Source of the DNA: a virus
Taxonomy: Duplodnaviria; Heunggongvirae; Uroviricota; Caudoviricetes
IMG/VR virus record: IMGVR_UViG_641522650_000013
Length of the DNA: 13,947 bases
Direction: 5' to 3' (one strand)
Shown here: positions 8,555-11,306 of the stretch, piece after piece
Position numbering within the stretch: position 1 is the stretch's first letter
Layout of the letters: the number at the start of each line of letters is the position of its first letter
Notes under the pieces: model-generated
The model's input: the letters and a program-made list of their open reading frames with translations, nothing else
Told to the model about the DNA's origin: nothing
Database searches by the model: none
Program-made: the position numbers and the translations under genes

Positions 8555-9857
8555 TATCGACCTTATCCGCGAAGTGACCAGCGCCGCAGCAGGGCGCTGG
8601 CCTTATGTGCTGGCTGAATTGTCTATCGACGTGCCTGATTCATCGCGCCGCCATTCTCCATGCCCTGCATGTGGTGGAAAAGACCGTTTCAGATTCGACG
8701 ACAACGGGCGCGGTAGCTTTATCTGCAACCAGTGTGGCGCTGGTGACGGGCTGGATTTAATCAAGCGGGTAAACAACTGCGACACCACGGAGGCGGCACA
8801 GCTTGCCGCTGACGTGCTGGGTATTGATTACCGGGCAGCGCAAACCGACCCGGCGGCAGCGAGCCATAGAAGAGAGCAACTGGAAGCTGACCGCCAGCAG
8901 CGTGAGCAGGAGCGCCAGAAACAGGCAGCAGAGGACGCAGAGCAGCGAAGGGCTACGTTTGCCCATCTGTATGCCGGAATGCGCCAGAGTGCCACACAGG
9001 GCGAATCTGATTACCTGCAATCAAAAGGGCTGACCGGGTTTAACTATCCGGTTATGCCGGATGGTTCGTTATTGCTGGAGCTGGTGGACGAATCCGGCGC
9101 AGTGGCAGCAGCGCAAACCATTACACCGCAGGGAGAGAAGCGACTCCTGACAGGTTCAGCAAAGCGCGGGGCATATCACGCCGTAAACGCGCCAGAATCG
9201 CCGCAGAGCGTTTTAATTGCCGAGGGGCTGGCGACGGCCCTTTCAGTTCACCTGATGCGCCCGGACGCGCTGGCAGTGGCAGCAATTGACGCGGGCAACC
9301 TGCTACCCGTTGCCGAAGTGATGCGCCGGATATATCCCGCCACGCAGATTATCATTGCCGCAGATAACGACCACCAGCAGGACGACCAGGCGAACACGGG
9401 CAAAGATGCCGCAGAGAAAGCCGCCTTATCCGTGGCTGGCTGGGTGGCGCTGCCGCCGACAGACTACAAAGCCGACTGGGACGACTACCGCCAGCAAAAC
9501 GGGCTGGAAGTCGCTACGGCTGCGTTTAACGATTCGATGTACCAGATTCAAGGGGAAGCCGTGAAACCGCGATTGCAAGCCATTGAGGGCGGTAAAACTG
9601 ACCATCCAGAGAAAGATCCACTAAAACCCCACATTGAGAGCCGCAAAGATAGCGTTTTCTGGGTAACGCCGAAGGTGGACAAGGAAAGCGGGGAGATCGT
9701 CAACGCTGAAAGCTGGTTATGTTCCCCGTTGGAGGTTATCGGCACGGGACGCGACGACAAAGATCAGTATCTTATTATCTCATGGCTGGCATTCGGTGCA
9801 GGCATACCGACAACAGCGGCTATCCCGCTGGCTGATATTGGCGAGCGTGAAGGCTGA
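8547..9857 (+). CDS. P4-alpha-like DNA primase (zinc-ribbon + Toprim domains)
   Basis: SD GGCAGGAGG then ATG 8547; N-terminal CPACGG...FICNQCG zinc-ribbon motif; Toprim-like VLIAEGLATALSVH ... IIIAADNDHQ (E ... DxD). Confidence 0.8.
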   Translation: MRNIDLIREVTSAAAGRWPYVLAELSIDVPDSSRRHSPCPACGGKDRFRFDDNGRGSFICNQCGAGDGLDLIKRVNNCDTTEAAQLAADVLGIDYRAAQTDPAAASHRREQLEADRQQREQERQKQAAEDAEQRRATFAHLYAGMRQSATQGESDYLQSKGLTGFNYPVMPDGSLLLELVDESGAVAAAQTITPQGEKRLLTGSAKRGAYHAVNAPESPQSVLIAEGLATALSVHLMRPDALAVAAIDAGNLLPVAEVMRRIYPATQIIIAADNDHQQDDQANTGKDAAEKAALSVAGWVALPPTDYKADWDDYRQQNGLEVATAAFNDSMYQIQGEAVKPRLQAIEGGKTDHPEKDPLKPHIESRKDSVFWVTPKVDKESGEIVNAESWLCSPLEVIGTGRDDKDQYLIISWLAFGAGIPTTAAIPLADIGEREG

Positions 9858-9950
9858 CGCACCCTGAAAGCTGGTGGGGTTAACGTCACGACCAAAAGCA
9901 GTTTACGGGCGATCCTTGCCGACTGGCTACAGCGGAGCGGCTCGCGTGAA

Positions 9951-11306
9951 TTGTGGCGCGTTGCTCATGCTACAGGCTGGCAGTGCGGGGCATACATCAT
10001 GCCGGACGGGGAAATCATCGGCACACCTGAGCGGCCTGTTTTGTTCAGCGGGCGCAGTTCAGCCGCTGCCGGGTATACCGTAGCAGGAACGCCGGAAAGC
10101 TGGCGCAACAGTGTCGCGCGGCTGGCATACGGCAACTACGCGATGATGACAGGCATTGCCGCAGCACTGGCAGCGCCATTAATCGGGGTGGCAGAGCGTG
10201 ACGGATTCGGGATTCATTTTTATGAGCAATCGAGCGCCGGGAAAACAACCACGCAGAACGTGGCTAGCAGTCTATACGGGAACCCTGATGCCTTGCGCCT
10301 GACGTGGTACGGGACGGCGCTGGGGATGATAAACGAGGCCGCCGCCCACAATGACGGACTGATGCCGCTGGATGAAGTCGGACAGGGCGCAGACCCGATA
10401 AGCGTTTCTCAGTCTGCCTATGCCCTGTTTAACGGCGTAGGGAAATTGCAGGGCGCGAAAGAAGGCGGAAATCGGGATCTAAAACGCTGGCGTACCGTGG
10501 CAATCAGCACCGGGGAAATGGATTTAGAAACGTTCATTGCCTCCGCAGGACGCAAGACAAAAGCGGGGCAACTGGTGCGCCTGCTGAATATCCCGTTAAG
10601 TAAGGCGGTGCGCTTTCATGAGCACCAGACAGGGAAAGACCATGCAGACGCATTAAAATCCGCGTGGCAGAGCAATCACGGCGCTGCCGGGCGGGAGTGG
10701 ATCAGATGGCTTGCAGGCCACCAGCAGCAGGCCATTGATACCGTTCGTGACTGTGAAGCCCGCTGGCGCAGTCTTATTCCTGCCGACTATGGGGAACAGG
10801 TTCACCGTGTAGGGGCAAGGTTCGCCATTCTGGAGGCTGCTTTACTGCTGGGTGGCGTGGTTACTGGCTGGGATGATCAAACGTGCCGTGATGCGATACA
10901 GCACAGCTACAATGCGTGGTTGCGTGAGTTCGGCACGGGGAACAAAGAGCACCAGCAGATTATTGAGCAGACGGAGGCGTTTTTGAATGCCTATGGGCTG
11001 AGTCGATTCGCGCCGCTGGGTTATGACCCGCGCGATTTACCCATCCGTGATTTAGCCGGGTACAGGAAGAAGGGGAACCACGACGGCGACCCGATAATTT
11101 TCTACACCTTCCCGGCAGCGTTTGAGCAGGAGATTGCAAAGGGCTTCAATACCAAACAGTTTGCCGAAGTTCTAAAGAATGCAGGAATGCTTACACCACC
11201 AACGAGCGGGCGAGGCTATCAGGGGCGAGTAAGGGAGGATGGGCGACAGATTCGCGTCTATGTACTCAATTTCATGGCAGAGGAAAGCAGCCAGCCAGAA
11301 GAATAA
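9951..11306 (+). CDS. DUF927-like P-loop NTPase / replicative helicase-like protein
   Basis: Walker A-like YEQSSAGKTT and Walker B-like LMPLDEV. Start uncertain: TTG 9951 or first ATG 9999. Same frame as the primase with no stop between its TGA (9855-9857) and this ORF. Confidence 0.7.
   Translation: MWRVAHATGWQCGAYIMPDGEIIGTPERPVLFSGRSSAAAGYTVAGTPESWRNSVARLAYGNYAMMTGIAAALAAPLIGVAERDGFGIHFYEQSSAGKTTTQNVASSLYGNPDALRLTWYGTALGMINEAAAHNDGLMPLDEVGQGADPISVSQSAYALFNGVGKLQGAKEGGNRDLKRWRTVAISTGEMDLETFIASAGRKTKAGQLVRLLNIPLSKAVRFHEHQTGKDHADALKSAWQSNHGAAGREWIRWLAGHQQQAIDTVRDCEARWRSLIPADYGEQVHRVGARFAILEAALLLGGVVTGWDDQTCRDAIQHSYNAWLREFGTGNKEHQQIIEQTEAFLNAYGLSRFAPLGYDPRDLPIRDLAGYRKKGNHDGDPIIFYTFPAAFEQEIAKGFNTKQFAEVLKNAGMLTPPTSGRGYQGRVREDGRQIRVYVLNFMAEESSQPEE

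Follow-up and report, generated by a model that had tools for sequence, protein, structure and literature searches.

Two neighbouring open reading frames (ORFs), one primase-like and one helicase-like, share a frame across a single TGA in a 13,947-nt stretch of Caudoviricetes DNA (IMG/VR record IMGVR_UViG_641522650_000013), referred to here as the window. Does this TGA separate two genes, is it a recoding site, or does it interrupt a single gene? A sequence-only reading had left all three answers open. In this study, we found that the two ORFs are very probably the halves of one pri-rep gene, which was recently nonsense-mutated (TGG to TGA) in one lineage resembling Shigella boydii. The features described below are on the plus strand, except for the putative replication origin, to which no strand is assigned.

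Reading frame and ancestral codon

Read directly from the sequence, the stretch from ATG 8547 to TAA 11304-11306 is one open frame whose sole interruption is TGA 9855-9857. Positions 8514, 8547 and 9951 are all 0 modulo 3, so the ORFs upstream and downstream of the TGA lie in the same frame. This confirmed what had been stated from the sequence, namely a common frame with no other stop in the 93 nt between the ORFs. The chance of such an arrangement had been put at about 8%, and the arithmetic holds: one third multiplied by the probability that 31 codons contain no stop is 7.5% for uniform codons and 9.7% with the base composition of the gene itself. The mechanical ORF of 447 residues begins at ATG 8514. 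The pri-rep gene itself starts at ATG 8547, where relatives have their annotated start and where an AGGAGG stands 7 nt ahead of the codon. The 5' fragment (8547-9857; 436 codons and the premature TGA) was delimited by Pfam, the Shine-Dalgarno sequence, annotated relatives and AlphaFold, and the 3' fragment (9858-11306; the remaining DUF927 helicase and a C-terminal domain) by Pfam, profile and Foldseek matches. An exact protein look-up in the collection returned neither the 447-residue ORF nor the product that would start at TTG 9951.

The codon at the site was then compared among relatives. TGG was present in 23 of 24 related loci (four E. coli, Shimwellia, five S. boydii-type, 12 metagenome contigs and one viral contig), and the exception was the lineage of the window itself. 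In the four E. coli relatives, the gene is annotated as a single "TOPRIM and DUF927" CDS, and the DNA alignment has TGG at the site. A scan of a genome collection for the site found only Shimwellia; this collection probably holds one genome per species. At the protein level, all 146 close homologues had Trp at position 437; three are deposited partials, and each of the others is a single protein of 902-928 residues (about 919). The 120 best cluster representatives were all fused as well, with 902-928 residues and all three Pfam domains. The check proposed with the sequence-only reading, whether the TGA position is a sense codon in continuous homologues, thus gave a clear answer: it is TGG, in fused proteins. 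Two separate proteins with a stop at this position were found neither among the 146 close homologues nor in the 23 other loci, which leaves the earlier suggestion of two genuinely separate genes unsupported and favours that of a nonsense-mutated fusion. The alignments with E. coli, Shimwellia and the S. boydii contigs L007 and L011 indicate that TGA 9855-9857 is the codon TGG for Trp437 altered by a single G-to-A transition at 9857.

The allele is recent and rare. The window lineage is 99.8-100% identical to the S. boydii contigs, and over the whole gene two bases distinguish the window from L007 and two from L011, in each case including position 9857 (A in the window, G in both contigs). Since these contigs with an intact gene are only two bases away, the lesion must be very recent. 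Intact TGG alleles were found in at least 28 contigs. Besides the TGA, no second lesion was found in the 919 codons. The otherwise undamaged state of the gene fits recency and would equally fit continued use.

Position of the stop within the Pri-Rep protein

An N-terminal primase module was recognised by Pfam, with Zn_Ribbon_Prim (5e-16) at residues 34-69 (nt 8646-8753) and Toprim_3 (2e-14) at residues 222-319 (nt 9210-9503). The primase half also gave fold matches to T7 gp4 primase and DnaG. In an intact relative, DUF927 was matched with an E-value of 1e-48. In the 3' fragment of the window, the DUF927 match begins at profile position 78 of 284, and the stop falls at about position 77 of 284. 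A Walker A GKT is read directly at nt 10239-10247. The helicase half (about residues 355-919) matched the SaPIbov1 Rep (PDB 8tch, E 1.5e-47) and SCCmec Cch (PDB 5dgk, E 4.2e-38) by profile. Foldseek gave TM scores, normalised to the target, of 0.76 for 5dgk and 0.68 for 8tch, with the fold match spanning about 580 columns. In NCBIfam, the match to Cch1 was weak and sub-threshold.

An AlphaFold model computed with 115 diverse relatives reached a pLDDT of 92.4; a model computed with 58 close homologues (85-95% identical) had a mean pLDDT of only 36.9 and was not used. In the former, the sole internal segment with pLDDT below 50 was residues 337-353 (nt 9555-9605), which would be the true linker between primase and helicase. 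Residue 437 lies, according to the model, inside helix 434-442, which belongs to the folded N-terminal helicase domain. Stand-alone DUF927 proteins of about 600 residues point the same way, as they start to match the query at residues 340-365, which places their beginning about 70-100 residues ahead of the stop. The primase had been described as ending at the TGA, but the modelled boundary is at 337-353, and the stop sits about 70 residues into the DUF927 domain.

The next 31 codons (residues 438-468, nt 9858-9950) had been taken for a linker. In the model, these residues take in the remainder of helix 434-442, then a loop, then helix 451-463, with pLDDT above 90. Compared with E. coli D5, they contain nine synonymous differences and one non-synonymous difference. 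L440, G444 and L457 are kept across 129 diverse relatives, and the segment is nearly invariant in the 146 homologues, which answers the earlier question of whether it is conserved at the protein level. Since the stop is about 70 residues inside the helicase domain, the 93 nt past the TGA are conserved, structured coding sequence of its N-terminal domain rather than a linker. Both modules occur in one uninterrupted polypeptide in all relatives, and in the window this polypeptide is broken at codon 437. The window copy is a disrupted member of the Pri-Rep family.

The intact gene encodes a 919-residue protein in which a DnaG/T7-type primase (Zn-ribbon and TOPRIM) is joined to a self-loading, MCM-like DUF927 replicative helicase. 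The G-to-A change at 9857 in one lineage turned the TGG of the invariant Trp437 into TGA. Translation would then stop after 436 residues, leaving the primase and a short remnant of the N-terminal helicase domain; the truncated product would lack the ATPase motor and the C-terminal domain. With such a product, the island should be unable to start its own replication, and we infer that the TGA allele has lost its function.

Readthrough, sequencing error, restart and recoding

Partial function of the TGA allele is unlikely. The stop could be a leaky opal allele, a hypomorph at which Trp-tRNA-Trp reads UGA-C at the percent level and supplies enough Pri-Rep for some replication. The ancestral residue is Trp, and Trp-tRNA-Trp is the competitor of RF2 at UGA; percent-level readthrough by this tRNA would be expected to rebuild the wild-type protein. 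The base after the TGA is C, and Poole, Brown and Tate are said to have described UGA-C in 1995 as a weak terminator context in E. coli. In E. coli K-12, readthrough of UGA by Trp-tRNA-Trp was about 2% at 37 °C and 4% at 25 °C (PMC10570021). However, an RNA fold of 9840-9960 was no better than those of shuffled sequences (z-score 0.24), which speaks against a stimulatory structure past the stop, and the stop is kept nowhere else, the 23 other loci having TGG. The RF2 of E. coli K-12 is unusually weak, and since the readthrough figure comes from K-12, Shigella may read through less than measured. A hexameric helicase also needs many subunits, and the upstream IS911 probably already separates the operon from its promoter. 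It is very unlikely that the change from TGG to TGA is a "self-correcting" opal allele that throttles island replication without knocking it out; selection might tolerate or even favour such an allele, since unchecked replication of a PICI is harmful to its host.

That the strain truly has TGG and an intact gene, with the TGA arising from a sequencing or assembly error, is highly improbable. The window is one base off near-identical relatives at this site, and the TGA allele was found elsewhere in one assembly only, Logan SRR9432729, as an error might predict. This assembly, however, has the same base, is 100% identical over 5964 nt and shares the IS911 junction; the agreement lowers the chance of a base-calling error without removing it, as SRR9432729 and the source of the window may be one strain or even one set of reads. 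Moreover, position 9857 is outside any homopolymer run, and the lineage-specific differences at 9097 and 12083, an extra iteron unit and IS911 mark a distinct lineage.

We consider it extremely improbable that the locus is a functional split into a primase and an N-terminally shortened helicase. The first canonical in-frame starts past the TGA are TTG 9951 and ATG 9999, and a gene caller predicts a 435-residue ORF from the latter. The wider DUF927 family does include separate primases and helicases, with Cch and SaPIbov1 Rep standing alone. But natural stand-alone helicases of about 600 residues start well upstream of the stop, whereas the two restart codons correspond to residues 469 and 485. 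Both residues fall within beta strands of the N-terminal domain in the model, and a helicase begun at either would be predicted to lack the entire beta-barrel 362-427. As had been noted from the sequence, neither codon has a strong Shine-Dalgarno sequence; the only purine-rich stretches are GGAG 13 nt before TTG 9951 and GGGG 9 nt before ATG 9999. A promoter and terminator scan around the stop found nothing, and the split architecture is absent from all relatives. A useful restart at TTG 9951 or ATG 9999 is thus not expected.

Virtually no credit can be given to programmed recoding, in which the TGA would be read as selenocysteine or mark a conserved site of readthrough: the frame is the same and the downstream sequence is open and conserved, but ordinary coding sequence accounts for that conservation, TGA occurs in none of the 23 other loci and in none of the 146 homologous proteins, and the downstream structure is no better than shuffled sequences, so that the earlier suggestion of programmed readthrough found no support. 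Selenocysteine was rejected in view of the missing downstream hairpin and of Trp in all relatives. A frameshift bypass was rejected as well, the halves being already in the same frame. These results indicate that the locus is an ordinary young pseudogene, neither a recoding site nor a split gene.

Island context and related replication systems

The pri-rep gene belongs to a decaying PICI-like (phage-satellite-like) integrative island with the order int, alpA, antA, ash, pri-rep, iteron origin and ssb. The window contains int at the left end, alpA and one-directional transcription. The tyrosine integrase gene (1-1320; Pfam Arm-DNA-bind_3, Phage_int_M and Phage_integrase) forms the left end of the island, and in S. 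boydii L007 it adjoins yicC. The gene for an AlpA-family regulator lies at 3154-3357, and its L007 equivalent, in a 100% identical stretch, has Pfam Phage_AlpA. Among the genes of the window, none was recognised as serving packaging or interference.

The suggestion that insertion sequences drove decay elsewhere holds. IS911 (5470-6718; 99.8% identity to annotated IS911) is inserted at the Ash-family gene's 3' end, a short way before the series of genes that leads up to pri-rep. It is lineage-specific, being missing in the otherwise 99.8-100% identical S. boydii L007-L011; its junction is present in L006. An IS2 copy (from about 12613 to 13947; 98.9-99.3% identity to annotated IS2) occupies the right side of the window and is shared with S. 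boydii L007, whose alignment runs on to 13947. An IS1 remnant is also present. The predicted inability to replicate would fit this other damage, with IS911 upstream in the same lineage and the scars of IS2 and IS1.

Directly 3' of pri-rep, eleven exact AGACAACA iterons in two sets and both orientations occupy 11333-11592 and surround an AT-rich stretch at about 11360-11404. The motif occurs 12 times in the window, where 0.32 occurrences would be expected, and 11 of the 12 are within 11333-11592. A cluster of iterons is found at the equivalent place in all relatives, including Shimwellia, and no match to the motif was found in P4. A previous report on Gram-negative PICIs described an origin that directly follows rep and in which an AT-rich region lies between two sets of iterons (PMC6092414). 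The interval 11333-11592 is, on this pattern, the probable replication origin of the island.

Gram-negative PICIs such as EcCICFT073 (Fillol-Salom et al. 2018, PMC6092414) resemble the island in gene order and share with it int, alpA, one-directional genes, a fused primase-replication initiator and a 3' origin with two iteron sets. The likeness is one of layout, and in the window the fusion is broken by the premature TGA. In a Gram-negative PICI, deletion of pri-rep lowered island transfer about 100-fold (PMC6092414). SaPIbov1 Rep and SCCmec Cch are DUF927 self-loading MCM-like helicases, both matched by the helicase half; they are, however, staphylococcal stand-alone proteins with 16-18% identity, whereas the protein here is fused to TOPRIM and interrupted in its N-terminal domain. 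The parallel drawn earlier with P4 alpha, likewise a single primase-helicase of a satellite element, stands for one half of the protein. The Zn-ribbon and TOPRIM half is homologous (34% identity over 338 residues, E 3e-42, residues 7-331), but no significant match to P4 alpha was found beyond Pri-Rep residue ~331, and its helicase half belongs to another family (D5_N/DUF5906/Pox_D5, superfamily 3) instead of DUF927. The P4 alpha type is characterised by such a superfamily 3 helicase together with a C-terminal origin-binding domain, a type to which the helicase half of the window protein does not conform. The pseudogenes of Shigella, which are attributed to reductive evolution and IS expansion, are of the same kind, and a nonsense point mutation that hits a gene of a mobile element beside IS911, IS2 and IS1 is nothing unusual among them. 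The one curious point is that near-cognate suppression at the UGA would bring back the original residue.

No lesions other than the nonsense change and IS911 set this lineage apart from S. boydii strains with an intact replication module, which suggests that the ability of the island to replicate was lost, or nearly lost, very recently. For annotation, a single pri-rep pseudogene containing an internal stop is the appropriate entry, in place of a primase gene and a DUF927 gene, and the locus should be kept off lists of recoding candidates. The analysis also yields a confident domain map of the widespread enterobacterial Pri-Rep family, together with its likely iteron origin.

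The ancestral codon at the stop

The frame of the primase-helicase gene pri-rep is interrupted by TGA 9855-9857 and remains open downstream to TAA 11304-11306. The first in-frame canonical starts past the TGA are TTG 9951 and ATG 9999, as the sequence-only reading had described. In the mechanical ORF list, the upstream ORF begins at ATG 8514. We place the gene start at ATG 8547 instead, because AGGAGG lies 7 nt upstream and relatives are annotated from the equivalent start. The earlier estimate that a shared frame and a stop-free interval would coincide by chance about 8% of the time was reproduced (7.5% with uniform codons, 9.7% using the base composition of the gene itself), and the comparative evidence overrides the question of chance.

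A megablast search of complete E. coli genomes was performed with 8514-11306 as the query. The region was present in 131 genomes and, among the matches listed, was a single 2760-nt CDS annotated as 'TOPRIM and DUF927 domain-containing protein'. DNA alignment showed TGG opposite the TGA in four E. coli genomes, with the flanking 230 nt 98% identical. An exact-pattern scan that permitted A or G at the mutated base found TGG in Shimwellia pseudoproteus, 12 metagenome contigs, and one IMG/VR contig. TGG was thus read in 23 of 24 loci, the sole TGA locus (L006, a Logan contig) belonging to the window's own lineage, and the protein alignment had Trp at this position in 146/146 homologues. The best 120 cluster representatives at 90% identity were all 902-928 residues long, and all carried Zn_Ribbon_Prim, Toprim_3, and DUF927. 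The sense codon in homologues bears out the proposal of a nonsense-mutated fusion.

Two database proteins from other lineages, P0156 (443 aa) and P0210 (144 aa), end 6-7 residues past the same Trp, in …GEREGWRTLKGG and …GEREGWSTLKDGLL, respectively. Both ends lie close to the GGTGGGG run (window 9873-9879), and the proteins could be either fragments from contig ends or truncations that arose independently.

Position of the stop in the protein

In an intact relative, DUF927 covers residues 367-645 (Pfam). In the window, the DUF927 match of the downstream fragment begins only at profile position 78 of 284, which puts the stop some 70 residues into the domain. The 31 codons after the TGA had been taken for a linker. 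When their conservation was checked, residues 438-468 proved almost invariant in 146 close homologues, and the structure model described below places them inside a folded domain, so that the linker description does not hold. Differences from the E. coli relative D5 over this stretch numbered nine synonymous and one non-synonymous. An alignment of 129 diverse relatives, taken as representatives of 50%-identity clusters, was variable at Trp437 (Arg in 57, Trp in 36) but conserved at L440, G444, L457, G477, W478, and P486; over this stretch it contained a few single-residue insertions and no long gaps.

An AlphaFold model built from 115 diverse relatives had a mean pLDDT of 92.4. Its sole internal low-confidence segment is 337-353, which the model indicates as the true primase/helicase linker. 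Residue 437 falls within helix 434-442. This helix, together with helix 451-463 and the strands at 362-427 and 469-484, makes up a folded N-terminal domain that precedes the ATPase core with its Walker A GKT at 565-567. DUF927 proteins that stand alone (about 600 residues) start to match at query residues 340-365, which again puts the natural boundary some 70-100 residues ahead of the stop. The restart candidates TTG 9951 and ATG 9999, at residues 469 and 485, fall within strands of the modelled N-terminal domain. These results show that the TGA arose by a one-base change in a Trp codon that is invariant among close relatives, and that this codon lies within a folded domain of a primase-helicase made as a single polypeptide.

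The helicase half matched SaPIbov1 Rep (PDB 8tch, titled 'initiation of replication protein with helicase activity'; profile E 1.5e-47, target-normalised TM-score 0.68) and the SCCmec helicase Cch (5dgk; E 4.2e-38, TM-score 0.76). The fold matches cover about 580 aligned columns, with MCM subunits lower in the fold-match list. Published work likewise describes Cch as a DUF927 protein related to SaPIbov1 Rep (PMC7581432). Structural matches of the primase half were T7 gp4 primase and DnaG. The comparison with P4 alpha made in the sequence-only reading held for the primase half (34% identity, E 3e-42) but not for the helicase half, where no alignment extended past residue ~331; the P4 alpha helicase half carries D5_N, DUF5906, and Pox_D5, whereas that of the window protein carries DUF927.

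Age of the allele and decay of the island

Two intact proteins of 919 residues, named from Shigella boydii, shared 99.9% identity with the conceptual product. Over 1-5469, the window and S. boydii contig AMKD01000093.1 (L007) were 100% identical; L007 lacks the 1249-nt insertion that follows 5469 in the window. Between 6719 and 13947, three substitutions (9097, 9857, 12083) and a single 9-nt unit distinguished the window from L007. Within pri-rep, L007 and L011 (another S. boydii-type locus) each differed from the window at two bases, one of them in the stop, and no second lesion was found across the 919 codons. Of the other differences from L007, G/C at 9097 makes Pri-Rep residue 184 Gly versus Ala, and C/A at 12083 falls within the ssb gene. 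Intact alleles were recorded in at least 28 contigs. Both fragments of the TGA allele were recorded in only one Logan contig (run SRR9432729), which is 100% identical to the window across 5964 nt and shares its IS junction. The near-identity to intact S. boydii alleles and the single other TGA record argue that the mutation is young and strain-specific.

The IS-linked decay suspected earlier was visible. The insertion at 5470-6718 matches annotated IS911 at 99.8% identity, has a GTGG/TGG duplication at its flanks, and is found only in the window's lineage, being absent from S. boydii L007-L011. Its site is the 3' end of the Ash-family gene, and the next small gene in the run toward pri-rep begins a few bases further on. 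IS911 probably cuts pri-rep off from its upstream promoter, with a polar effect on the downstream replication genes. IS2 (~12613-13947, the window end) and an IS1 transposase remnant near the integrase (~1726-2229, minus strand) are also present in L007 and hence predate IS911 and the TGA.

The replicon and the predicted consequence of the stop

On the plus strand, the island carries a tyrosine integrase (1-1320), an AlpA-family gene (3154-3357), AntA- and Ash-family genes with several small ORFs before pri-rep, and, after it, an SSB gene (11681-12115). Directly 3' of pri-rep, AGACAACA occurs in 11 exact copies within 260 nt (11333-11592), against a chance expectation of 0.32 for the whole window. 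The copies form two sets, in both orientations, flanking an AT-rich stretch at ~11360-11404. The cluster was at the same position in every relative, including Shimwellia, and was absent from P4. This region is probably an iteron-type replication origin. The layout is that of the Gram-negative PICI (phage-inducible chromosomal island) replicon, with int, alpA, fused pri-rep, and a 3' origin of two iteron sets around an AT-rich region; deletion of pri-rep in EcCICFT073 lowered transfer ~100-fold (PMC6092414).

The window has an extra 9-nt iteron unit, AGACAACAA, at 11567-11575 relative to S. boydii L007-L010, and L011 has the window's count; iteron copy number therefore varies among near-identical strains. 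In E. coli 19AR0656 (L003, 5897-8704), the origin and ssb 5' region form about three repeats spaced 713 nt apart, with three 'partial SSB' pseudogene calls and 36 iteron matches, which looks like tandem amplification of the origin region. The island in L007 sits between yicC and dinD/yicG/ligB. In E. coli 2015-01-2097 (L002, 12039-14038), two dinD copies lie beside it, one intact and the other carrying an internal stop and annotated as a pseudogene. An intact pri-rep on an 80-kb contig classed as viral in IMG/VR (IMGVR_UViG_2744054526_000001) suggests that on that contig the island adjoins or sits inside a prophage call.

Poole et al. in 1995 reportedly found UGA followed by C to be the weakest terminator context. 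UGA readthrough in E. coli K-12 is ~2% (37 °C) to 4% (25 °C), with Trp-tRNA-Trp set against RF2 (PMC10570021). As the reader is Trp-tRNA-Trp, any readthrough would put tryptophan back at residue 437 and yield wild-type Pri-Rep. Programmed readthrough, one of the earlier proposals, is not supported: RNA structure after the stop was not above chance (z-score 0.24) and the stop is conserved nowhere else, so any readthrough would be incidental leakage. Two separate genes are likewise not supported, since the best 120 representatives are fused and neither a good Shine-Dalgarno sequence nor a promoter was found ahead of TTG 9951 or ATG 9999.

With the nonsense-mutated fusion, translation would halt after residue 436, giving a primase without its motor. 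The helicase part would not be produced in useful form, because the restart codons lack these signals and a product started there would lack the N-terminal domain. The island would then be unable to fire its own origin. The feature is of a known kind: judged from sequence, an ordinary, very recent pseudogene, with predicted loss of function, carried by a Shigella boydii-like strain on a PICI-like island that is decaying.
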